Numbered from the stretch's first letter, positions 9,430-55,290 are shown. The stretch is DNA of 64,000 nt from an uncultured delta proteobacterium (GCA_963709485.1 CAVPWE010000005.1:207608-271607), one strand, 5' to 3'. Program-made: numbers and translations. Notes: generated from the sequence alone by a model not told the origin.

Positions 9430-9505
9430 TCCTCAGTAGCTCAGTCGGTAGAGCAGATGGCTGTTAACCATCGGGTCCGTGGTTCGAGTCCGCGCTGAGG
9501 AGCCA
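9430..9505 (+). tRNA. tRNA-Asn (anticodon GTT), CCA encoded
   Basis: Cloverleaf read by eye. The acceptor stem is TCCTCAG/CTGAGGA, the D-arm is AGCTCAGTCGGTAGAGC, the anticodon loop is CTGTTAA and the T-arm is GGTTCGAGTCC. The 3' end is GCCA. Confidence 0.9.
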
Positions 9506-21478: not shown

Positions 21479-21892
21479 TTACTTCTTCATCCCCACATCC
21501 TTGATCGCCTGGGTGCACCGCCCGCTGATCTTCGCTTTGTTTTTCTGGAGGCAGTCCAGCAGGCGCCCTTCGCCGGGATCGACGGCCGAGCAGTAGGTCT
21601 TCAGGTCATTACGGCATTCATTGGCCACGTAGCTCAGCGCGTTGATCACTCGCTCGAGCTGCACGGAGGCGTCGTAGAGCGCATACTCGCAGCGGTTCGA
21701 GAGCTTGTCCCCATAGGCATAGAGGCAGGCCAGGACCCGGCCCTCACCCGGAGCCACACCCTTGCAGTAGGTTGTGATTTCCTTGTTGCAGCCATCCGTT
21801 ACGGTCTGGACCAGTCCTTCCTGAGCCAGCGCGCTTCCCGCAAAAAAAAGCACCAGGCTGATCGCCAGCAGACATCGGATCATGTGTTTCAT
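21479..21892 (-). CDS. Secreted cysteine-rich repeat protein
   Basis: 137 aa with a signal peptide. It contains two copies of the pattern C..(x)..YC..V.PGEGR.L.CL......S..C. Confidence 0.75.
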   Translation of the reverse strand: MKHMIRCLLAISLVLFFAGSALAQEGLVQTVTDGCNKEITTYCKGVAPGEGRVLACLYAYGDKLSNRCEYALYDASVQLERVINALSYVANECRNDLKTYCSAVDPGEGRLLDCLQKNKAKISGRCTQAIKDVGMKK

Positions 21893-21953: not shown

Positions 21954-22394
21954 TTACTTCTTCAGCATCAGCTTCACGCCGCCTGTGGCGAGCTTCACAT
22001 TGATGCCCTTGGTCGTCGCGATCAGATTGATCACAATCCCGTTCTGGTTCTTCATCGAGACGGCCCCGGCGCCTCCGCCCAGCGTGCCCTCCGCGGCGAC
22101 CGCGGTGTAGTTGCCGTCGAAGTCTGCGAGCTTCTTGAGGCCATACACCTGGCCGGTAGCCGTTGCTTTCGTAATCCCGACATCACCCACGGAAAGCCCC
22201 TGCACCGTCACGGGGTACTTCTTGCCCTTGTAGGTCAGGGTGCCCGATCCCCAACTGAACCCGATGCCGACGCCGACCTGCCCCTGCGAAAGTTCGAGGG
22301 TGGCATCAGGCTTCTGGTCCTGTGCAACGGCCATGCCGGATAAACAGAGAAACAGTGTCATCATCACAACGGTCATCAACGAGAAACGCTTCAT
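21954..22394 (-). CDS. Secreted Gly-rich beta protein of unknown function, possibly DUF1134-like
   Basis: 146 aa with the signal peptide MKRFSLMTVVMMTLFLCLSGMAVA. The family assignment is from memory only and is not verified. Confidence 0.65.
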   Translation of the reverse strand: MKRFSLMTVVMMTLFLCLSGMAVAQDQKPDATLELSQGQVGVGIGFSWGSGTLTYKGKKYPVTVQGLSVGDVGITKATATGQVYGLKKLADFDGNYTAVAAEGTLGGGAGAVSMKNQNGIVINLIATTKGINVKLATGGVKLMLKK

Positions 22395-22594: not shown

Positions 22595-23377
22595 TTACCG
22601 GCTTGCTTTTCCGAATGTCGCCGACAGCGCGCCTTCGGCGTTGCGCAGTTCCAACTTTGCGCCGTCGATGCGATACGAAGCCGCCGTGGACAACGCCATC
22701 AGATATTGCGTCTCTTGATCCATCACCGCCTGCTCACATGCCTTCCGCGTCGTTGAAAAGGTCGGCGCGATTGTGATCTTATCTCCGACAATCCGGTACG
22801 AGGCAGCGTAGTTGTTGCAGCCCGCGCTGCCTCTCAACTTGCCGTCAGCACCGAAGTTCGCCGTGAGTTCGGTACCCGCCATCACGCTGACCACGGCCTG
22901 CCTGCCGTCGTTGTAACCGGTCACGATCCACGATGTGCCTGCCAGATCGCCGCTCTGCGAGACGAACGTGGCAAGCTCCTTGCCGCTGGCGTCATACAGG
23001 GATAGCTGCAGGGCATCGGCCGTGTAGGTGGCCGCCTGTCCCAACGCCTGCAGATAAGCGGTCGCCTGCATCGCGATCGGTTCCGGGCAGGCCATCATCG
23101 TCGAGGCGAAGGGTTGGTTGAACTTGATGTTTGTGCCATCGGCCGTGTAGGAATCCGTATAGCCGTTGCAGCCATCTGAGCCGGCCACTTTTCCGGCCGC
23201 GAAGTTGAGTGTGACCGTGGTGTCATTCAGTGCGGTCTGGCCCTGCAGGGTTGCCAACGTCCAGCCGGTTCCATCCAACGGGTTCGCACCGCTCATGGAC
23301 TGCTCGCTCTGCCCGCCGCATGCCGTCGCAATCAAAGCGAACACCGTCAGGGCTGCCGTAAAGATTGTGTGGCGCAT
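22595..23377 (-). CDS. Lipoprotein with two META (HslJ-like) domains
   Basis: The lipobox is in MRHTIFTAALTVFALIATAC. Two repeats have the pattern W.....G......V...F..GK..GS.GCN.Y...Y. The ATG at 23377 is preceded by GGTGGAGGAAAG. Confidence 0.8.
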   Translation of the reverse strand: MRHTIFTAALTVFALIATACGGQSEQSMSGANPLDGTGWTLATLQGQTALNDTTVTLNFAAGKVAGSDGCNGYTDSYTADGTNIKFNQPFASTMMACPEPIAMQATAYLQALGQAATYTADALQLSLYDASGKELATFVSQSGDLAGTSWIVTGYNDGRQAVVSVMAGTELTANFGADGKLRGSAGCNNYAASYRIVGDKITIAPTFSTTRKACEQAVMDQETQYLMALSTAASYRIDGAKLELRNAEGALSATFGKASR

Positions 23378-23580: not shown

Positions 23581-24213
23581 TTAGAAATGGAACCCCAGAC
23601 CGGCGCTGAGCCCAAAATAACGGATCGTATCAATATCGCTGCCAAATCCGGCCGTGTAGGCACCCTCGACGTTGAGGGACAGGGTCGGGGTGAGATAGAT
23701 GTCGACGCCGATCCCGAGCTTTGCGCAGGCGCCCATTTCATCGCTCGATGGCGAATTCGTCATTAACCCCGGGCTGCTGATCGTCTCTTCCCAGGATGCA
23801 TGCATGAGTCCCAGTCCGGCAGCAAAGTAGGGTCTGACAATTCCCTGCAGGGGTGGAAAGATTTTCGCCACCGCCATGGCCGTGAATACGTCAAGATCCC
23901 CATCGTAATTGTACTGCCTATGGCCCGATGACAGCGTCTGGCTTGCATTGAAACCGAACAAATACTGGAGATCCATTTCAACAGAAACGATCGGATTGAT
24001 TTTGTACCCGAACTTTCCGTTAATGCCCCATGTGTTGTCGTAGGAAGGATCGAATCCGTACGGCGCCGCGCCTTCGAACTGATCGGCATTGAAATACTCC
24101 ACGGCAAGCGTGCCCCCGACCCCCACGTACATCCTCGTTCCCTCTGCCGCAAAGGCAGAGCCTGCCAGGAAAAACAATGTCACGATGCAACCCATGATAC
24201 CCAGTTTTTTCAT
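23581..24213 (-). CDS. Outer-membrane beta-barrel protein (OmpA-like/OmpW-like porin family fold)
   Basis: The signal peptide is MKKLGIMGCIVTLFFLAGSAFA. The sequence shows alternating aromatic/Gly beta-strand patterns and ends in a terminal F (GLGFHF). Confidence 0.8.
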   Translation of the reverse strand: MKKLGIMGCIVTLFFLAGSAFAAEGTRMYVGVGGTLAVEYFNADQFEGAAPYGFDPSYDNTWGINGKFGYKINPIVSVEMDLQYLFGFNASQTLSSGHRQYNYDGDLDVFTAMAVAKIFPPLQGIVRPYFAAGLGLMHASWEETISSPGLMTNSPSSDEMGACAKLGIGVDIYLTPTLSLNVEGAYTAGFGSDIDTIRYFGLSAGLGFHF

Positions 24214-24341: not shown

Positions 24342-24455
24342 CCACTACAACTTCCCAGGCAGAAGGTAAATTGGACCTTAGTCCTAGACAAAATGGACTT
24401 TGGTCCCATATGGGCATGAAGGGGAAAACAATTCAGGAGAAGGGGGAAACATGGG
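24342..24455 (-). promoter_or_regulatory. Copy A of the conserved tandem-palindrome operator plus promoter, upstream of the OMP gene
   Basis: The minus-sense core is GGGACCAAAGTCCA-N7-TAGGACTAAGGTCC, then 2 nt, TTTACC, 17 nt and TAGTGG. About 45 nt of pyrimidine-rich conserved sequence lies upstream. Confidence 0.6.
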
Positions 24456-24708
24456 AGACAGAGGACAGTCCGCGGCATCGATGGAAAAATGGAAAAAAGG
24501 GGGGGGTATGTTCTCCTTTTCGGCCTTTTCCGATGCAAAAGGATCATCCATCGTGGTATAGAGAACAGTTAGTCGGAATATATCGACCAGACGGGATCGT
24601 ATCCGTACAGGTGGATTGACTTTTCAGTCGGCCGGAGTCATACATAAAATATGACAATTGCCCGTCACACAAACCCCATCAGGACCGGGGTGGAACGAAG
24701 GAGGGAAA

Positions 24709-24876
24709 ATGGCGCGGGTCGTCCAGGTCCACGGGACGTTTAATGAGTTCAGGTGTCCGCACGAACCGAAGGTGCGCTGGTTGCCTGTGCTGCAAGATGC
24801 GCTGTGGCAGGACGGTGTCGAGATCGCAGACGCCCGCGGGAGAGCTGTGATGACATGCAGAAGGGACCCGCGGTGA
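24709..24876 (+). CDS. 55-aa ORF resembling the N-terminus of an alpha/beta-hydrolase, with its stop overlapping the kinase GTG start
   Basis: AAGGAGGG lies 4 nt upstream of the ATG. The product MARVVQVHGTFNEFRCPHEPKVRWLPVLQDALWQDG resembles the first strand and helix of some serine hydrolases. There is a GTGA overlap with the downstream gene. It could be a gene remnant. Confidence 0.3.
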   Translation: MARVVQVHGTFNEFRCPHEPKVRWLPVLQDALWQDGVEIADARGRAVMTCRRDPR

Positions 24877-27519
24877 GCGCGAGGAAAACGCAAGCGGGGG
24901 GAATGGCGCTTCTGGCTTACCCTGTTATTCCTGATCATCGGGTCTTGCGGCTTTTGCTTTGCCCAGTCGCAGCCTCAAGTTGATCTGACCGGAAAGAATG
25001 TCCTGGTCCTGCACGCGTTCGAAGGCAACGCACCCGTTTTCCGGGATACCGACAGGGGAATCTCGAAGACGCTGCAGTCCGGCGGGATATCCAGCCTGAA
25101 TCACTTTTTCGAGTCTCTGGAGCTGCGGCGGAACCCCGGTTCCGAGCACAGGAAACTGTTGGTCGAACAGATGCGCTTGCGATACGGCAATCGCAGGCCC
25201 GACATCATCATCACCATGTACCCGGAAGCCATGGAATTTGTGATGAAGGATTGCGGAGACATCTTTCCCGATGTCCCCATTCTCGCCTTATACCTGCCGC
25301 AGGGCTTCGAGTTGCCGAAAACGAACCGCCCCATCATCGGGCATGCCCCTACAGTTGATATCCTTGGCACCCTCGAGATTGCGTTGAAGCTCGCTCCCGG
25401 GGCAAAACGCATCTATGTCGTGAACGGCGTCCACGAAGTCGACAGAAGGTTGGAGGGTCAGGCTCGACGCGTTTCCAAGAAATGGGAGGGACAGATGGAG
25501 TTTCTCTACCTGAGCCACTTGCCCTTCAAGGATATGCTGGCTGCTGTCTCCAACGCACCCCCCGACTCCATCATCCTGGCATTGGCCCTCAGTCAGGATG
25601 TTACCGGGAATAGTTACACAAGCCCGGTCGTGGCCGAACGGCTGAGCCGGATCTCTGCGGCCCCGATCTTCGGGATCCTCGAATCCATGCTGGGAGAAGG
25701 GATTGCCGGAGGCAAGCTCCTCAGCTTCGAGCTGATTGGCAAAAAATCGGGCCGACTGGCTCTGGATATTCTCAGCGGCGCCAAAACACCGGTTGATGTC
25801 CCGGCTGCCCTGGACGCGCCGACCGTGCCCATGTTCGATTGGCGGCAGCTCCGGCATTGGAAATTGAAGGAGAACGCTTTGCCCGCGGGAAGCATCGTCC
25901 TGCACAAGGAAGCCATGTTTTGGGACTTCAAGTATTACATCCTTGGCGCCCTGGCCTTCTTCCTGCTGGAAACCGCCCTGATCGTTTTCCTCATGGTTCA
26001 GATACGCCGCAAGAATATTGCCGAACAGTCCCTGAAGAGAGTGGAAGAAAAGTATCGAAACATTTTCGAGGGCGCCCTGGAGGGCATTTTTGAGTCATCG
26101 CCCGAGGGACGGCTCCTGACCGCTAACGACGCGCTGGCCAGCATGCTGGGCTACGATTCAGCGGATGAAGCCACATCGGCCCTGCAGGACCTTGCTGCGC
26201 AGGCGTGGGTGAATCCCGATGAACGTGCGCAGCACATTCGTCTGCTCGAAAAACAGGAGGTCGTCCTGAACTATGAATGCCAGCTCCGCCGCAAGGATGG
26301 AAAAGTGATCTGGGTGTCCATGAACACCCGGCGGATCTGCAGTCCGGACGGACGAACGCTGTACTTTTCGGGTTTCTTGCAAAACATTACGGAGCACAGG
26401 CAGAATTTAAAGGCACTGGCCGAGTCACAGGCGCAGATTCTGGCGCTGTTCGACAGCACCAATGACATGATCTGGTCCGTGGACCCCGTGACTTTCGGGC
26501 TCGTCACTTTCAACAGGGCACTCAAGGACTACTTTTTCGATCAGCGCGGGATCGAAATAAGCGCGGGCATGCCGCCGGAACAATTACTGCCGGCGGACTA
26601 TGCGGTCCAATGGCATGAATTCTATCAGCGCGCTTTGCGGGACGGATCCTATACGACGGAGTATCTTGTCGCGGCCGGTACGAATTATCTCCTGCTTTCG
26701 ATCAATCCCATGAAGCGCAACGGAAAGGTATTCGGTATTTCGGTCCTCGGAAAAGACATCACCGCGCGAAGGCAGGCGGAGATGGAGGCCCGGAGGCTCA
26801 AAGACGACCTCGCCCATGTCACCCGGTTGTCGACGATGGGAGGACTCACGAGTGCCGTGGCCCACGAAATCAACCAACCCCTGGCTGCGATTCTCAGCAA
26901 TGCCCAGGCGGCCAAGCGTTTTCTTGTGCAGGGCAATCCCGACATGAACGAGATCGCCGAAATCCTGGAAGACATCATCCGGGACGACAACCGGGCCGCG
27001 GAGGTGATCCGGAAAATCCGGACCCTGCTGAAAAAGGAGGAAATCCGGTACGAGCCGCTGGACCTGAACGACATCGTCGACGAGATTTTGATGGTCGTCC
27101 GCAACGACGCCGCTCTGAAGGCCGTGTCGATCGAAAAAGAATTCACCACATCGCTGCCGTCCGTGTGGGGTGACCGGATACAACTGCAGCAGATCATCCT
27201 GAATCTCCTCCTCAATGCGGCGGAGGCCATGAGGGATGCAGCGCTCGATTTTCGCAGACTGATCGTCAGGACGTCGAGGCGGGAGAACCGGTTCGCGCAG
27301 GTATCCATCCGGGACTTCGGGCCCGGCATTCCAGCGGATTCCCTGCGCCGGCTTTTCGAGCCTTTTTACACCACCAAATCCGGAGGTATGGGCATGGGCC
27401 TCTCCATCAGCAAAGATATCATCCAATCCCACAGAGGCGAAATCCGGGTTGTGAACAACCCGGACAGAGGCGTCACGGTTTCCTTCACCGTGCCGTTCGA
27501 CAGCGGGGTGAGGCCATGA
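24873..27519 (+). CDS. Sensor histidine kinase (periplasmic ABC-substrate-binding-like domain, TM, two PAS, HisKA, HATPase); N-terminus out of frame at a G6 run
   Basis: The main ORF has two PAS regions, the H-box LTSAVAHEINQPL, and the N, G1 and G2 boxes (LLLNAAEAM, DFGPGI, GGMGMGLS). Its TM/signal segment EWRFWLTLLFLIIGSCGFCFAQS joins the GTG at 24873 only if the G6 run at 24896-24901 is read as G5. Confidence 0.85.
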
Positions 27520-28145
27520 TGGAGACCAAGCCCGTCATCTGCATCGTCGACGATAATCCCTCCGTCCGGCGGTCCCTGGAAAGGCTCATTCAATCCCTCG
27601 GCCTCACGGCGCGGTCCTTTGCCTCTGCCACGCAGTTTCTGCAATCCGGCCATCAGGAAGAAACGGACTGCCTGATTCTCGATGTGCGGATGCCCGAGAT
27701 CAGCGGCCTCGACCTGCAGGAGAAATTATCCGGGATGGGCATCTTTTTACCCATTATCTTCATTTCGGGGCATGGGACGGTCCCGATGAGCGTGCGCGCC
27801 ATGAAAGCCGGTGCGGTGGACTTTCTCCAGAAACCCTTCGATGAGCAGGACCTGATCGATGCCATTTACGGGGCCATCGATCGCTGCAGGCAGAGGAAGG
27901 CGGAACGCGAGGAATTGACGGAAATCCAGGCGCGACTTTGTTCGCTGACCCCGAAAGAGCATCAGGTCCTGGCCTGTGTCATCACGGGCCTGCTGAACAA
28001 GAATATTGCAGACAGGCTCGCCATGGCGGAAAAAACCGTCAAAGTCCATCGTGCATCGGTCATGAAAAAAATGGGGGCCCCGTCTGTCGCCGATCTCGTC
28101 CGGATGGCCGAAAAGGCGGGCATACGCCCCCTGACACCAAAGTAG
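27516..28145 (+). CDS. FixJ/NarL-family response regulator (receiver plus LuxR-type HTH)
   Basis: 209 aa. Contains ICIVDDN, LILDVRMPEISG, FISGHG and the HTH region LTPKEHQVLACVITGLLNKNIADRLAMAEKTVKVHR. There is an ATGA overlap with the kinase gene. Confidence 0.9.
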   Translation: MMETKPVICIVDDNPSVRRSLERLIQSLGLTARSFASATQFLQSGHQEETDCLILDVRMPEISGLDLQEKLSGMGIFLPIIFISGHGTVPMSVRAMKAGAVDFLQKPFDEQDLIDAIYGAIDRCRQRKAEREELTEIQARLCSLTPKEHQVLACVITGLLNKNIADRLAMAEKTVKVHRASVMKKMGAPSVADLVRMAEKAGIRPLTPK

Positions 28146-28159
28146 CCGACCGGTGTCTG

Positions 28160-28271
28160 TTTTCCTCCCCTTCTGAACCCCACATGTTCCCCTGCATGGC
28201 CGTGTGGGACCAAAGTCCAGTGCGGATAGGACCAAGGTCCCATTGCCCTTCGGATTGAAAAGATTTATTGA
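28160..28271 (+). promoter_or_regulatory. Copy B of the tandem-palindrome operator plus promoter, upstream of the lipoprotein/K+ channel/antiporter genes
   Basis: GGGACCAAAGTCCA-N7-TAGGACCAAGGTCC (28206-28240), then 2 nt, TTGCCC, 17 nt and TATTGA (28266-28271). Confidence 0.6.
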
Positions 28272-28302
28272 ATTTCATAAGAGCAAAGAGGAGGAAAGCC
28301 TT

Positions 28303-28785
28303 ATGAGGAAAGTATGGGTGTTGTCCTTTGGGATCCTGACGGCGCTTGTGTGTTCCTGTTTGGGTTGTGCCGGCCTGCTTGCCGGGAAATACGGATCCAT
28401 GGTGCCGGACGGCAAAGCCAGTGCAGCCTTTGAATCTTTTCAGCTCAGCGCCGGCGTCAACTACTATGTGAGCGGTTCCGACGAGTATCCCAACGCGATG
28501 CTGGGCCTCAATAGGGAATATACGCTGGATTCGACGCTCTGGAAGAGGATCGAGCCCACGCCCGCGCGTTTTCGGGACCTGGTTTTGCAGATGCAGGCCC
28601 GGGCCTGGCAGATCGGGCAACGGCATTACGGGTTTGCCGTTGTCGACGAGCAGGGCCGCCAGATCGGGATATGGTATTCCTTCCTCGCCGCCAGGACGCC
28701 TGTTGTGATGAAGGAGGATCGGCATGTCGAGATTTACACTCCCGATATCGACACCTATATCAAATACGAGGCGAGTGAGCGCTGA
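28303..28785 (+). CDS. Lipoprotein of unknown function
   Basis: The N-terminus MRKVWVLSFGILTALVCSCLGC carries a lipobox. GAGGAGGAAAG lies upstream. The protein is 160 aa. Confidence 0.7.
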   Translation: MRKVWVLSFGILTALVCSCLGCAGLLAGKYGSMVPDGKASAAFESFQLSAGVNYYVSGSDEYPNAMLGLNREYTLDSTLWKRIEPTPARFRDLVLQMQARAWQIGQRHYGFAVVDEQGRQIGIWYSFLAARTPVVMKEDRHVEIYTPDIDTYIKYEASER

Positions 28786-28845
28786 CGGGATAGACTGCTT
28801 CCATTAATGGTTTCCTGATCTTACAGGCGATGGCTGCTTCTGACC

Positions 28846-29277
28846 ATGCTTGAGAAAATCCTCATCGCGTGCTTTCTGGTAGCCATCACGGTTGCCGTGC
28901 ATACCGCCGGATTATCCCTGGTGTTGCGCTTCTGGATGAAATCGCACGCCGCGCTGCCGACGCAGCCCTGGCCCATCACCTGGCTGCTCATCCGCGTGAC
29001 GTGGTTCCTGATCCTGATGCATGCAGCCGAGATCACGGTCTGGGCGTTGTTCTATCTGTGGGCGGGATGCCTGCCCGATGCCGAGTCGGCGTTCTATTTT
29101 TCCGGAGTCACCTACACGACCGTTGGCTACGGCGATCTGACATTGCCGCAACCCTGGCGGATCCTTGGCCCGATCGAGGCTTTGGCTGGCATTCTCATGT
29201 GCGGACTGTCCACGGGACTTTTCTTCGCGGTTGTGAGCAGGATTTACGCGTCGCGTCTGGAAGCAAAGCGAAAGTGA
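28846..29277 (+). CDS. Small two-TM potassium channel
   Basis: Contains the selectivity filter TYTTVGYGD flanked by two hydrophobic helices. The protein is 143 aa. Confidence 0.85.
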   Translation: MLEKILIACFLVAITVAVHTAGLSLVLRFWMKSHAALPTQPWPITWLLIRVTWFLILMHAAEITVWALFYLWAGCLPDAESAFYFSGVTYTTVGYGDLTLPQPWRILGPIEALAGILMCGLSTGLFFAVVSRIYASRLEAKRK

Positions 29278-29281
29278 ACCG

Positions 29282-30376
29282 ATGAAAACACTCCTCAAGG
29301 AAATCCGTCGCAATCCGCTGCTCTGGCTGCTGGTATTCGCGCCCGCGTTGTTTGCCGCCGCGGAGATCAAGCCCGAAGCACACACGCTGCTCTTCGTGCT
29401 GTCCGTGCTGGCCATCGTGCCCCTGGCCGCACTGTTGAGTCGTGCCACCGAATCGGTGGCGTCCAGGACGGGCGATGCGGTAGGCGGCCTGCTTAACGCC
29501 ACGCTGGGAAATCTGACCGAACTGGTCATTGCTCTTACAGCCCTGCGCGCCGGGCAGTACATGCTGGTGAAAGCGTCCATTGCCGGCGCGATTGTCACCA
29601 ACGCTTTGTTCATGTTGGGCGTGTCGTTTCTCCTGGGCGGACTCAAGCACCACGTTCAGGAATACAACCGGGTCAGCGCCCGTCTACAGGCCGCCCTGCT
29701 TTTCCTGGCCACGATCGCGCTGTTGATACCTTCGGCGGTCGCCGAAGCAGACTCGGCAGCGTGGGCAGCGTTCACTCAGAAGTTGAGTTTGGGGCTGGCG
29801 GTGCTGCTCATTGCCGGCTATGGGTTGGGCATGCTGTTCTCGCTCAAGACGCACCGCGAGCTGTTTGCCAGTGTGGATCATGCCGAAGCCGGCGAAGCGC
29901 CGTGGCCCATCGGTCTGGCCCTGGCCACGCTGGCCGGTGTCACGGTGCTGGTGGCCCTGGTGAGTGAAGTCTTCGTCGAGTCGGTGCAGAAGGCGGCGGA
30001 GACCTTCGGGATGACGCCCGCGTTCGTCGGTTTCATCGTCGTGTCGCTGGTCGGCGGCGCGGCGGAAATGGCCTCGGCGTTTTCGGGTGCGCGCAAAAAC
30101 CGGCTCGATTTGAGCGTGGGCATTGCCCTGGGCAGCGCGTCGCAAATCGCGCTCTTCGTTGCTCCGGTTCTTGTGCTCGTGAGCTATTTCATCGGACCGA
30201 CGCCGATGGACCTGCAATTCTGGCCGGGCGCGGTGGTGATGATGCTTATCGCCACCCTCACCGCATCGCTCGTCACGAACAGCGGTCGGTCGGCGTGGTT
30301 CGTCGGGGTGCTGGTGTTGATGGTCTATCTGATCTTCGCCATGACGCTGTACCTGCTCCCGCCCCAAGCGCCGTGA
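29282..30376 (+). CDS. Ca2+/H+ antiporter (CaCA/CAX family)
   Basis: 364 aa with about 11 TM segments. Alpha-repeat motifs GNLTELVIAL and GGAAEMASA are present. Confidence 0.85.
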   Translation: MKTLLKEIRRNPLLWLLVFAPALFAAAEIKPEAHTLLFVLSVLAIVPLAALLSRATESVASRTGDAVGGLLNATLGNLTELVIALTALRAGQYMLVKASIAGAIVTNALFMLGVSFLLGGLKHHVQEYNRVSARLQAALLFLATIALLIPSAVAEADSAAWAAFTQKLSLGLAVLLIAGYGLGMLFSLKTHRELFASVDHAEAGEAPWPIGLALATLAGVTVLVALVSEVFVESVQKAAETFGMTPAFVGFIVVSLVGGAAEMASAFSGARKNRLDLSVGIALGSASQIALFVAPVLVLVSYFIGPTPMDLQFWPGAVVMMLIATLTASLVTNSGRSAWFVGVLVLMVYLIFAMTLYLLPPQAP

Positions 30377-30458
30377 AAGCGCAGTCCATGCCTGCACCGC
30401 GCAAACCGGCAGGTTATGGAGACTAAAGATGAAAAAGAACGAAATGAATGCAACCGAA

Positions 30459-30572
30459 CCTCTTCCCGATCCCCATCATCTGAATTGATTCCCCCCATTT
30501 TCATGGGGGACCAAAGTCCAGTGCGCCTAGGACCAAGGTCCAATTTACAGGCTGCACCGGAAGGGATATTCA
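30459..30572 (+). promoter_or_regulatory. Copy C of the tandem-palindrome operator plus promoter, upstream of the receiver/CoA-transferase genes
   Basis: GGGACCAAAGTCCA-N7-TAGGACCAAGGTCC (30507-30541), then 2 nt, TTTACA (30544-30549), 17 nt and TATTCA (30567-30572). Confidence 0.6.
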
Positions 30573-30694
30573 ATCCGTAAACAGGGAAACTGATTTTTCC
30601 CTCTTGCCGATTGTTCCCGCATGGAACCGCCGGCACCGGATAACCCGCATCCATCCAAGCGGTGCTTCAACCGATGAGAAAGGCCGGTGACACG

Positions 30695-31135
30695 ATGCTC
30701 CCGATGACAGACACCGTTTTCATCGTGGACGATGATGCGTCCGTGCGCAAAGCCTTGCGCCGGCTGCTGAGATCCGCCCAATACCGTGTTCAGACCTTCA
30801 CGTCGGCCGAGGAGTTTCGATTGTCCGGTTTTAACAGCGAACGGGGCTGTCTGCTTCTTGATATCAGACTGCCGGGAATCAGCGGATTTGAACTTCAGGA
30901 AGAGCTGCTTGCCTCGGGCGTGCAAATGCCCGTGGTCTTCGTAACGGGTCATGACCTTCCCGGAATGGAGGAACGGGCGATGCTTCTGGGAGCCGCGGCA
31001 TACCTGCGCAAACCCTTCGATGAAAAGGCTCTGTTATCCTCCGTTCGCATTGCCATCCAATTACGATTCAACAGCAGGACGAATAAAACAAAATCACCCC
31101 CCGCATCGAAGCAAACGGAACAGGAGGAGCGATGA
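30695..31135 (+). CDS. Stand-alone response-regulator receiver protein
   Basis: Contains MTDTVFIVDDD, LLLDIRLPGISG, FVTGHD and YLRKPF. There is no output domain, only a short polar tail. The ORF is open from 30662 and the start is uncertain. Confidence 0.85.
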   Translation: MLPMTDTVFIVDDDASVRKALRRLLRSAQYRVQTFTSAEEFRLSGFNSERGCLLLDIRLPGISGFELQEELLASGVQMPVVFVTGHDLPGMEERAMLLGAAAYLRKPFDEKALLSSVRIAIQLRFNSRTNKTKSPPASKQTEQEER

Positions 31136-33117
31136 GCGAGCGCAAAATTGTCAGTCCGGTCGTGGATGACATCAAGGCCCATATGAAGCGGGGGAAGATC
31201 GTTTCGGCGGATGAGGCTGTGCGCGTCATCCGAAGCGGCGACACGGTTGCCCTGGACGGCGTCATGGGAGGGGGCGCCCCTGATGAACTGATCATCGCCC
31301 TCGAGAAGCGGTTTCTGGAGAGCGGAAAGCCCCGGGGGTTGACGCTGGTGTACGCCTCGGGAATCGGTGACGGGAAGGAGAAGGGTGTCAACCGCCTTGA
31401 CCATGATGGCCTGTTGAAGCGAGTGGTTGCGGGGCATTGGGGGCTGACGCCAAAACTGCAGAAGCTGGCCGTCGGCGGAAAAATCGAGGCCTACAATTTT
31501 CCCCAGGGTATTCTCGCGCACATGTTCCGCGATATCGCCGCTCATAAACCCCGGACGATTTCGAGCGTCGGCATCGGAACCTTCGTCGATCCGAGGCTGG
31601 GAGGGGGGAAGATCAATGCCATGACAACCGAAGATCTTGTCGAGGTGGTCACCTTCGACGGAAAGGAGTACCTGGCCTACCGGACGATGCCCGTACAGGT
31701 GGCGTTTCTCAGGGGGACGACGGCCGACATGGACGGCAACATCACGATGGAGCGGGAGGCGATGACGCTCGAAGTGCTTCCGATTGCCATGGCGGCCAAG
31801 AACTCCGGCGGCATTGTCGTCGTCCAGGTCGAGCGCATTGCCGACCGGGGCGCCCTGAACCCGCGCCACGTGAAGATTCCCGGGATTCTCGTCGACTGCG
31901 TCGTCGTGGCGCGGCCGGAAAATCACTGGCAGACGTATGGTGTGCAATACAACCCCGCTTTCAGTTGCGAGTTCAAGGTACCGGCCGCCAGCGTCGACCC
32001 GCTCCATATGGATGACCGTAAGATCATCGCCCGGAGGGCGGCGTTCGAACTGAGGCCGAACATGGTCGTCAATCTCGGGATCGGCATGCCGGAAGGTATG
32101 GCCAGCGTGGCCAACGAGGAAGGGATTTTCGAGTACCTGACCCTTACGGCGGAGGCCGGTTCGGTCGGGGGAATCCCGGCCGGCGGGGCGAATTTCGGGG
32201 CTGCCACCAACATGGACTGCCTGCTGGACATGCATTTTCAGTTCGATTTTTACGACGGCGGGGGGCTCGATCTTGCCTGTCTCGGGCTGGCGCAGATGGA
32301 CCGTCTCGGAAACGTGAACGTGAGCCGCTTCGGCCCCAGGCTCGCGGGCTGCGGCGGCTTCATCAACATCAGCCAGAACGCGAAGAAGATGGTCTTCGTG
32401 GGGACCTTCACCGCAGGCGGGACGAAGGTGGATATCGACGACGGGAAGCTCCGGATCGTGAAGGAGGGGGGTGTAAGGAAATTCGTGAACGAGGTTGAAC
32501 AGATCACCTTCAGCGGGAACACGGCGCGGATGAACAACCTCGACGTGATCTTCATCACGGAGCGCTGCGTGTTCACCCTGACCGATGAGGGCGTGGAACT
32601 GACGGAAATCGCACCCGGCGTGGATCTGGAAAAGGACATCCTGGCTTACATGGATTTCAAGCCGATCGTGAAGAACCCCAAGCTGATGGACGAAAGGATC
32701 TTCAAGCTCCCGCCCATGGACCTGAAATCGGATCTCCTCAGCAAGCCGATATCCGAGCGGCTGAAATACGACCCCGCGACGAACATCTTCTATGTCAATT
32801 TCGAGGGCCTCCAGATCCGATCCGCGAAGGACATCGAGGAAATCCGGACGCAAACGGAAGCCATCCTGGGCCCGCTGGGCCGGAAGGTGGACACCATCGT
32901 CAACTACGACAACTTTTCCATTCTGCCGGAACTCGTGGATGCCTATGCCGATGCGGTGAAAAATATTGTTTCGCGCTTCTACGAGAACGTCACCCGGTAC
33001 ACGACCAGCGCCTTCCTGCGAATGAAACTGGGTGACGGGTTGAAGGCGCGGGGGTTTGCCTCGCACGTCTACGAATCCAGGGAGGAGGCCCGCAAAGGGC
33101 TCAAATCCGGCAACTGA
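31132..33117 (+). CDS. Family I acyl-CoA:acetate/3-ketoacid (propionate) CoA-transferase, long form with a roughly 130-aa C-terminal extension
   Basis: Residues 1 to about 530 resemble YdiF/Pct: SADEAV..I.SGDTVA, EAYNFPQG, GIGTFVDPR and NLGIGMPEG. The extra C-terminal region reads NFEGLQIRSAKDIEEIR...VTRYTTSAFLRMKLG. There is an ATGA overlap with the receiver gene. Confidence 0.8.
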   Translation: MSERKIVSPVVDDIKAHMKRGKIVSADEAVRVIRSGDTVALDGVMGGGAPDELIIALEKRFLESGKPRGLTLVYASGIGDGKEKGVNRLDHDGLLKRVVAGHWGLTPKLQKLAVGGKIEAYNFPQGILAHMFRDIAAHKPRTISSVGIGTFVDPRLGGGKINAMTTEDLVEVVTFDGKEYLAYRTMPVQVAFLRGTTADMDGNITMEREAMTLEVLPIAMAAKNSGGIVVVQVERIADRGALNPRHVKIPGILVDCVVVARPENHWQTYGVQYNPAFSCEFKVPAASVDPLHMDDRKIIARRAAFELRPNMVVNLGIGMPEGMASVANEEGIFEYLTLTAEAGSVGGIPAGGANFGAATNMDCLLDMHFQFDFYDGGGLDLACLGLAQMDRLGNVNVSRFGPRLAGCGGFINISQNAKKMVFVGTFTAGGTKVDIDDGKLRIVKEGGVRKFVNEVEQITFSGNTARMNNLDVIFITERCVFTLTDEGVELTEIAPGVDLEKDILAYMDFKPIVKNPKLMDERIFKLPPMDLKSDLLSKPISERLKYDPATNIFYVNFEGLQIRSAKDIEEIRTQTEAILGPLGRKVDTIVNYDNFSILPELVDAYADAVKNIVSRFYENVTRYTTSAFLRMKLGDGLKARGFASHVYESREEARKGLKSGN

Positions 33118-54654: not shown

Positions 54655-55290
54655 CTATCTGCAAGAGCCGGTCGACCCCTCTCTGCAAATTTTGCCGTCG
54701 ACCCAGACTGCCTCGTCCATCATTGCGCCGGTCAGAATCGCACCGGTCAGGTCCGCGTCGATCAGACGCGCGTCGGTCAACCGCGCGCCCGTCAGGTTGG
54801 CGCCCTTCAGATTGGCGCCGCGCAGATTCGTCCGGATCAGGCGCGCGCCGGTCAGGTTCGCACCGGTCAGGTTCACCCCGGTCAGGTTCGCCCCAGTCAG
54901 GTTCACACGGGTCAGGTCCGCTTTCGTCATATCCGCGCCGGACAGATTTGACTCCGACACGTTGGCCCCCGTCAGATTCGCGCCGCTCAGGCTCGCTTCA
55001 CCCATTGCCGTGTGCGAAAGATTTGCCCCGCGCATGTCCGCGCCGGACAGGTGGGCGCCGTTCAGTGCCGTATAGTAAAGATTCGCACCCGTCATCTTCG
55101 CACCCTGCAGCTGCGCCCCATTGAGGGTTTCATTCGCGATGAAAGCGCCCGACAGATCGCAATTCGGGCATTTCTTGAAAATCTTGGTCCGCTGTACGTC
55201 GCCCGCCTCGAATGCCGGGCAGCCGGCGGCGGCAATCAAGCCTGCAGCGAGGCCGGCAAAAGAAATGAAAAGCGCTCTTTTCCAAGTCAT
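54655..55290 (-). CDS. Pentapeptide-repeat lipoprotein
   Basis: The N-terminus LIAAAGC is lipobox-like. About 28 consecutive A(N/D)L(S/T)G-type pentapeptides follow, for example ANLTGANLTGVNLTGANLTGARL. Confidence 0.9.
   Translation of the reverse strand: MTWKRALFISFAGLAAGLIAAAGCPAFEAGDVQRTKIFKKCPNCDLSGAFIANETLNGAQLQGAKMTGANLYYTALNGAHLSGADMRGANLSHTAMGEASLSGANLTGANVSESNLSGADMTKADLTRVNLTGANLTGVNLTGANLTGARLIRTNLRGANLKGANLTGARLTDARLIDADLTGAILTGAMMDEAVWVDGKICREGSTGSCR

Follow-up and report, generated by a model that had tools for sequence, protein, structure and literature searches.

A candidate tandem-box operator in three copies beside a FixJ/StyR-type two-component system of an uncultured delta proteobacterium

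All promoters controlled by DevR carry at least two tandem boxes with the half-site G4G5G6A7C8T9, and at tgs1, where the DevR boxes are centred at -42.5 and -63.5, a change of phase abolishes cooperative binding as well as activation (PMC3177182). DosR reads the sequence GGGACT by means of K179, K182 and N183 (PMC13486717; PMC5861037). StyR activates transcription from a high-affinity palindromic site at about -40 (PMC2442086), and FixT is a receiver-only feedback inhibitor of FixL in Caulobacter (PMC7078487). Here, we describe a stretch of DNA of 64,000 nt from an uncultured delta proteobacterium (GCA_963709485.1 CAVPWE010000005.1:207608-271607; "the window" refers to this whole stretch), which holds three copies, A, B and C, of a tandem-box element. 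The genes encoding one sensor histidine kinase along with a response regulator with a LuxR-type helix-turn-helix lie between copies A and B (Table 1). The three sites are very probably binding sites of this adjacent regulator, each located just upstream of a promoter. With considerable confidence we read the copies as cis-regulatory modules of the intervening two-component system, in which the phosphorylated regulator would bind the tandem boxes and activate the adjacent promoters of envelope, ion and solute genes and of receiver genes.

All six boxes of the window have the form GGAC-N4-GTCC. In each copy the two boxes are separated by 22 bp from start to start, and the general form common to copies A, B and C is GGACCAAAGTCC-N10-GGACYAAGGTCC. 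Inspection of the sequence placed all boxes where the initial annotation had located them. Its spacing of 22 bp was likewise correct, whereas the description of the boxes as 12-bp palindromes applies to the arms only and is better replaced by GGACC-AA-GGTCC within an 18-bp near-palindrome. Three copies are far beyond chance expectation: allowing at most one mismatch, GGACYAARGTCC had seven matches in the 64 kb (1.15 expected), six of which are the operator boxes, and this number was equalled in none of 100 shuffles. GGACNNNNGTCC occurs just once more in the window outside the copies. A position weight matrix (PWM) of 45 columns, built from 76 non-redundant related sites, gave scores of 59.5-71.4 for the three copies and below 18 for every other position in the window; when the window was shuffled 20 times, no position reached a score of 10. 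The likeness of copies A and B continues beyond the boxes as an inverted repeat (I1, 96 nt, 75%), and that of copy C to the other copies spans 60-73 nt. Comparison of the copies also showed that the upstream conservation reported earlier (CCCC..TCTGAA..TTCCCC..CATG) is real.

In the initial annotation the motif was not recognised as any described operator. It does have a precedent, as both the half-site and the tandem, phased layout abutting the -35 element match the DosR/DevR boxes (PMC3177182, PMC13486717). The half-site is GGGACT in DosR and wGGACC here, and in both cases 4 bp separate the AC core from the GT core. Two or more tandem boxes in helical phase are common to both, the centre-to-centre distance being 21 bp for DevR and 22 bp here, and the proximal box stands against the -35 element, with box centres mapped at -42.5 and -63.5 for DevR and inferred at about -43.5 and -65.5 here. 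The DosR lysines K179 and K182 correspond to K173 and K176 of the regulator in an identical AEKTVK context. Upon alignment of the regulator (NKNIADRLAMAEKTVKVH) with DosR (NKQIADRMFLAEKTVKNY; its numbering agrees with the residues named in PMC13486717), both lysines were kept and N183 and Y184 were replaced by V and H (N183 = V177). In other respects the two systems differ. The regulator is not an orthologue of DosR (27% identity; E values in the PDB of 2.7e-11 for DosR vs 1.9e-54 for StyR), its kinase has a periplasmic domain and a PAS domain where the DosR-system kinase has a GAF-haem domain, and the targets here are envelope, ion and solute genes rather than a dormancy regulon. Furthermore, both boxes are near-consensus here, whereas DevR secondary sites are poorly conserved. 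The element thus appears to work like a Dev-box promoter, with a regulator and a system that fall outside the DosR family. A literature search for the exact 12-mers as an operator returned unrelated primers only.

The Pfam matches of the regulator (Response_reg, 1.8e-29; GerE, 2.7e-19) place it in the NarL/FixJ class with a LuxR-type helix-turn-helix. Its best NCBIfam match, the FixJ equivalog NF006900, reached 213.8 bits and stayed below the 255-bit cut-off, which points to a member of the FixJ family that is not a FixJ equivalog. StyR (1YIO) and FixJ (5XSO, E 4.9e-41) are the closest solved relatives in the PDB, DosR coming 26th, and homologues with 67-99% identity stem from uncultured Syntrophales/Syntrophaceae. 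A look-up of the exact regulator sequence retrieved no contig. StyR, which belongs with StyS/StyR and TodS/TodT of Pseudomonas, has the TVKVHR helix in common with the regulator, and at the place of DosR K179 StyR has a Val and the regulator a Lys. The Sty/Tod box ATAAAC-N4-GTTTAT has an A-rich half-site in place of the G-rich GGAC found here; the layout xxxAC-N4-GTxxx would be common to both. Sty/Tod promoters have three sites of unequal affinity plus IHF, in contrast to the two equal boxes without a third one described here, and both StyS and TodS, which serve for aromatics, are double kinases of the cytoplasm, unlike the kinase of the window with its periplasmic domain. The latter has a FixL-like catalytic core; with the FixL equivalog it reached 188 bits (cut-off 850) and its PAS matches were generic only.

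Linkage between regulator and site was examined in two independent ways, one of them protein-first, starting from regulator homologues only, and the other motif-first, with a symmetric pattern applied to species-representative genomes and an oriented pattern applied to the whole metagenome collection. In the protein-first approach all eight loci (L001, L003, L226-L231; regulators 69-82% identical) had a tandem site with a PWM score of 50.6-79.0, and this site invariably started 57-73 nt past the regulator stop codon. Copy B is the positional orthologue of this site, and most of the eight loci had additional copies close by. The symmetric scan yielded three unrelated classes, namely cyanobacterial/Campylobacterota hairpins, actinobacterial tandem boxes and Syntrophales-type sites with the full architecture. 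The oriented pattern excluded the hairpins, which had dominated the symmetric scan, and, in a scan that was not cut short, retrieved 101 stretches from the entire metagenome collection. In some 38 of about 105 motif-first loci, a regulator orthologue (69-98% identity) ends 60-73 nt upstream of the site, and its adjacency persists while the gene downstream of the site varies between species. In distant metagenome-assembled genomes (Acidobacteriaceae, Desulfobacterales, Ca. Desulfatibia) the motif adjoins a regulator whose DNA-binding domain is 45-57% identical and retains the helix EKT[VI]KVHR. The pattern EKT[VI]KVHRA was found in 112 of the 120 best regulator homologues and had no match in the remaining eight. 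On a 366-kb contig there were five strict sites, of which four lie no farther than about 16 kb from the two-component system. Scanning of related genomes, proposed in the initial annotation as a check, thus revealed a motif that recurs at low copy number beside the regulator and upstream of genes. That the linkage persists although the neighbouring genes change is the chief argument for the adjacent regulator as the binding protein, and the earlier idea of a promoter-abutting operator of this LuxR/FixJ-type protein gains support from the eight protein-first loci, the roughly 38 motif-first loci and the distant lineages alike.

The same evidence bears on the possibility that the boxes are bound by another regulator, of true DosR/NarL type and encoded elsewhere, and that the adjacency is incidental or reflects co-regulation. 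GGAC-N4-GTCC is a DosR-type half-site, the actinobacterial genomes in the same scan show tandem boxes with 22-bp spacing, and the adjacent regulator is closest to StyR, whose box is A/T-rich. However, the site is fixed at 57-73 nt after the regulator stop codon in all eight and in the approximately 38 loci despite a changing downstream gene, distant phyla that keep the recognition helix show the same linkage, and this helix bears both lysines that read GGGAC in DosR. We consider a foreign binding protein improbable, if less so than the other alternatives discussed below. The actinomycetote boxes themselves (L009, L014, L023, L030, L064, L065, L083, L118, L124) have the form GGGACC..GGTCCC, are 22 bp apart from start to start and come from Streptomyces, Mycobacterium, Actinoplanes and Acidimicrobiales. 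Presumably these boxes are sites of the DosR/OsdR type, and none of the stretches showed a FixJ-type regulator with the EKTVKVHR helix next to them.

Across the 76 non-redundant sites, the box consensus is an 18-bp near-palindrome, A-y-w-GGACC-AA-GGTCC-w-r-T, with 4 bp between the two boxes. The start-to-start distance of 22 bp was seen in every related site as well as in every copy of the window, and this spacing, taken from centre to centre, puts both boxes on the same face of the helix. The asymmetric box centre CAAr keeps its orientation although the boxes are otherwise palindromic. A manual check found the promoter geometry described in the initial annotation to be exact in all three copies: 2 nt past the promoter-proximal box 2 stands a -35-like hexamer, which a spacer of 17 nt separates from a TA-initial one. 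Conserved beyond box 2, in columns that are not fixed by the search pattern and are numbered from the start of the distal box 1, are AATTtmCCT, which includes the -35-like hexamer, an A at +53, the TGTA of +57-60 and the AAT of +64-66. This conservation reaches about +67 and decays after about +70, where A-rich positions follow that are compatible with a transcription start. The promoter consensus of the family is TTtmCC-17-TAwkgA, with TG before the second hexamer. The first ATG preceded by a ribosome-binding site (RBS) lies at least 52 nt past the end of box 2, and at 13 of 54 sites this distance is 52-73 nt. Such a minimum just fits a -35 element, spacer, -10 element, start site and RBS, and it speaks for a transcription start downstream of the boxes. 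The -35/-10-like elements and the decay of conservation together suggest box centres at about -43.5 and -65.5.

Directly 5' of box 1, at positions -21 to -1 of the 76 sites, lies a pyrimidine-rich element (TTTyCnCTTC...TCCrTAyT), and about a third of the sites have a second TTTCCCcCTTCTgAAT element some 40 nt upstream; neither of the two is a degenerate box. A third, degenerate box upstream, comparable to the DevR secondary sites, was rejected as a symmetrised 18-mer PWM gave background values at offsets -22 and -44. Short GGGGAnTTTCCCC-like palindromes were noted in 5' leaders about 45-60 nt after the -10-like hexamer (L003 10680, L012, L091, L097, L120 and copy C at about 30590-30620) and may represent a leader hairpin or a second site. 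At one locus (L230, 4668-4701) a single box pair has a -35/-10-like module on either side, which suggests a bidirectional promoter by analogy with the divergent tgs1-Rv3131 DevR promoter.

Activation is deduced from position only, and one could also imagine that the bound regulator represses, or serves as a roadblock or terminator-like element where its own operon ends; in particular, copy B lies just about 60 nt past the regulator stop codon with no intrinsic terminator between. The boxes are, however, situated upstream of the -35-like hexamer and not over it, the hexamers are weak yet conserved as in activator-dependent promoters, and the architecture equals that of DevR-activated promoters. 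Moreover, copies A and C and many sites elsewhere are not behind a regulator gene. We therefore rate repression or a roadblock as unlikely, a shade more so than binding by a foreign regulator.

An RNA element, with transcription starting upstream and the boxes folding as a hairpin in a 5' or 3' untranslated region (UTR), is a good deal less likely still. The boxes can cross-pair as RNA (GGGACC/GGUCCC, GUCC/GGAC), the fold of copy C is better than that of shuffles (z = -2.42), and copy B would belong to the 3' UTR of the operon with the regulator. In contrast, copies A and B show no gain in folding over shuffles (z = 0.49 and -0.12), overall no significant fold was seen, and the copies had no match in Rfam at the gathering threshold or at E<=1. 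The arms are invariant, hence there is no covariation, and the variable central bases are as expected of protein sites. Promoter-like elements follow every copy at fixed spacing, and genes start as near as 52 nt. A repeat of the repetitive extragenic palindromic or miniature inverted-repeat transposable element (REP/MITE) type, dispersed without regulatory role, can practically be dismissed, for although abundant hairpin repeats in genomes of Microcoleus/Oscillatoriales and Campylobacterota contain identical 12-mers and copy A arose by segmental duplication, those hairpins are structurally different (long, perfect, GGTTCGTAGTGA-GGACTTTAGTCC...GGACTAAAGTCC-TCACTACGAACC), and the element described here is low in copy number (three in 64 kb, 101 stretches in the metagenome collection), is always oriented toward the start of the downstream gene and is linked to one regulator family. 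Two of the outcomes that the initial annotation had named as contradicting its reading, a multitude of scattered copies and an RNA element, thus did not materialise. The hairpins (L006-L124; Microcoleus, Oscillatoriales and other cyanobacteria, Sulfurovum and Campylobacterota) are sometimes arranged in tandem and share the operator 12-mer. Their two 12-mers, separated by N10 between GGACTTTAGTCC and GGACTAAAGTCC, are mutually reverse-complementary within a perfect stem, and they are a different, REP/MITE-like element.

Several points weigh against the reading of the copies as operators of activated promoters. A standard sigma-70 scan of the window (9 or more of the 12 bases of TTGACA/TATAAT matched, the second base of the -10 hexamer being A and the sixth T) called none of the three promoter-like modules, and the -10-like hexamers TAGTGG, TATTGA and TATTCA (consensus TAwkgA) are devoid of the canonical T at position 6. 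The sigma factor, the start site and the positions -43.5/-65.5 are therefore uncertain. The assignment as promoters would follow from conservation and geometry and not from a consensus match; the modules are compatible with a weak, activator-dependent promoter, and such compatibility is no proof. The search patterns themselves dictate part of the conservation statistics, and the operator reading does not account for the conserved pyrimidine-rich element 5' of box 1. All the evidence for operators comes from sequences of uncultured organisms. Finally, the kinase gene of the window appears to be frameshifted, and the system may be inactive in this organism unless the sequence contains an indel error.

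The kinase start had been placed at 24873. This start was not upheld: its frame stops at 24983, and the main kinase frame (24877-27519) has no start codon after the TGA at 24874. The frame of the ATG at 24903 differs from the main frame and likewise terminates at 24983. Compared with L139, a 96%-identical metagenome contig with an intact kinase gene, the window has an extra T 8 nt past this ATG. The frameshift thus falls into the third or fourth codon and is either real, making the gene a pseudogene, or an assembly indel. The gene content was otherwise as annotated, the gene calls being confirmed by Pfam. For the periplasmic domain of the kinase, sequence searches in Pfam and the PDB returned no match. 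Autoregulation at the kinase gene was considered and rejected, as no single or tandem box faces the kinase in the window; the only sigma-70-like match upstream of it lies at 24621-24650. An open reading frame of 55 codons at 24709-24876 has a strong RBS (gaaggagggaaaATG), overlaps the kinase start region with its 3' end and is likewise conserved in contig L139; this may represent either the remnant of a gene or a small gene upstream of the kinase.

Table 1. Boxes, promoter-like modules and genes at the candidate operator sites (coordinates within the 64,000-nt window)
Feature	Position	Strand	Description
Copy A, distal box (box 1)	24395-24406	minus	GGACCAAAGTCC
Copy A, proximal box (box 2, promoter side)	24373-24384	minus	GGACTAAGGTCC
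Copy A, promoter-like module	24342-24370	minus	TTTACC (24370-24365), 17-nt spacer, TAGTGG (24347-24342); faces the outer-membrane protein (OMP) beta-barrel gene
Copy A, upstream pyrimidine-rich element	24407-24452	minus	Conserved sequence
Copy A, upstream part	24407-24525	minus	Pyrimidine-rich element and non-coding relic of the 3' end of the regulator gene
Copy B, tandem boxes	28207-28218 and 28229-28240	plus	GGACCAAAGTCC-AGTGCGGATA-GGACCAAGGTCC
Copy B, promoter-like module	28243-28271	plus	TTGCCC, 17 nt, TATTGA; followed by RBS and ATG at 28303
Copy B, upstream pyrimidine-rich element	28160-28206	plus	After the regulator stop codon
Copy C, tandem boxes	30508-30519 and 30530-30541	plus	GGACCAAAGTCC-AGTGCGCCTA-GGACCAAGGTCC
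Copy C, promoter-like module	30544-30572	plus	TTTACA, 17 nt, TATTCA
Copy C, upstream pyrimidine-rich element	30462-30507	plus	Conserved sequence
Sensor histidine kinase	24903-27519	plus	N-terminal transmembrane segment, periplasmic domain of about 300 aa, PAS, HisKA, HATPase
Response regulator	27516-28145	plus	Receiver domain and GerE/LuxR helix-turn-helix, StyR/FixJ clade; recognition helix AEKTVKVHRASVMKKMG
Predicted target unit A	23581-24213	minus	OMP_b-brl outer-membrane protein (Pfam)
Genes downstream of the OMP gene	22595-23377; 21954-22394; 21479-21892	minus	META; EipA-like; Cys-rich
Predicted target unit B	28303-30376	plus	Lipoprotein-like 28303-28785; Ion_trans_2 K+ channel 28846-29277; Na_Ca_ex cation/H+ antiporter 29282-30376
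Predicted target unit C	30695-33117	plus	Stand-alone receiver 30695-31135; fused CoA-transferase 31132-33117

According to the mechanism that we propose, the kinase would sense a periplasmic or envelope cue and phosphorylate the regulator, and one phosphorylated dimer of this FixJ/StyR-type protein would occupy each box, probably in a cooperative manner. The proximal box would abut a weak sigma-70-type promoter (TTtmCC, 17 nt, TG-TAwkgA), to which the bound regulator would recruit RNA polymerase by class-II-like activation. Envelope, ion and solute genes would then be transcribed together with the stand-alone receiver paralogue, which would probably exert feedback on the kinase, either as a sink for phosphate or as an inhibitor.

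The receiver is the commonest member of the putative regulon. Of 94 unique sites, at least 21 have it as the first gene after the site, and so does copy C, where the encoded protein is 43% identical to the receiver domain of the regulator. In related genomes the receiver gene is often trailed by genes for CusF-like, DUF3141, Ysc84 and CoA-transferase proteins. At four loci (L226, L228, L229, L230) the order downstream of the regulator is receiver-only gene, CusF-like gene (about 195 aa), (DUF3141), Ysc84 and fused CoA-transferase, from which the window retains just the receiver and the CoA-transferase. By analogy with FixT the receiver-only gene is probably a feedback element: in both cases a single-domain receiver gene would be driven by the system, here predicted from the position of the site, with possible feedback on the kinase. 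Unlike FixT, which is controlled through FixK, the receiver gene here would be a direct target; the receiver has a single Cys, and a FixT-like Fe-S cluster is therefore not expected.

Second commonest as first gene, at 11 sites, is one for a lipoprotein of about 50 aa. Further targets encode EipA-like proteins, OmpA/VWA lipoproteins, porins, OMP barrels, Ysc84 and DUF3300 proteins as well as a GH63/MGH1-like hydrolase, a patatin and a CoA-disulfide-reductase/rhodanese. Apart from the receiver, they are mostly envelope, ion and solute genes. The theme of an envelope/ion-homeostasis regulon put forward in the initial annotation hence stands, with OMPs, porins, channel and antiporter among its members, whereas a restriction to such functions does not, the stand-alone receiver being the most frequent target. 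The predicted regulon points to a response to envelope or osmotic/ionic stress. In the window, the META, EipA-like and Cys-rich secreted-protein genes may or may not be co-transcribed with the OMP gene of unit A, and EipA-like genes in other genomes bear their own copy of the motif. The 160-aa lipoprotein-like protein of unit B had no match in sequence searches of Pfam and the PDB.

Copy A carries traces of its origin. Upstream of it, and in its orientation, lies a non-coding relic that corresponds to the last regulator codons and their 3' flank; over 26 nt (24500-24525 vs 28106-28131) complementarity is 85%, and the likeness runs on through the flank. The presence of this relic of the regulator 3' end beside copy A indicates that copy A arose by duplication of the copy-B segment, and provides evidence for a duplicated promoter cassette of about 190 bp. 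In another species, an operator cassette together with a gene for a protein of about 103 aa is duplicated over 458 nt with 88% identity, the two segments lying a few kb apart in the same genome (L004 16397-16853 vs L007 3717-4173). A related 123-aa homologue of this protein (MKSYKVE...) had no Pfam match.

As a tentative and rather speculative extension, a regulator of the StyR/FixJ clade may have converged on the DosR code, a single Val-to-Lys exchange at the first base-reading position of its recognition helix (EVTVKVHR to EKTVKVHR) having retargeted it from a TAAAC to a GGAC half-site, and its regulon may have grown by copying of the promoter cassette of about 190 bp. If true, this would be a clean natural example of a specificity switch combined with promoter-cassette propagation. 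Syntrophales are syntrophs that are uncultured or hard to grow, and our literature searches found no response-regulator operator from this order. The analysis provides a precise predicted operator (an 18-bp box in two copies with 22-bp phasing), a candidate cognate regulator and an outlined regulon, and leads to a concrete hypothesis about the way in which recognition helices of the LuxR type specify GGAC vs AAAC half-sites. It holds no new regulatory principle; the element would be a real but familiar kind of gene switch that recurs in uncultured Syntrophales.

Two further features of the window were noted. A run of about 20 consecutive units of 15 nt, GCNCCGGTCAGNTTC-like, at 54710-55094 is typical of a coding region for pentapeptide repeats, and the tRNA gene at 9430-9502 is the sole Rfam match in the window.

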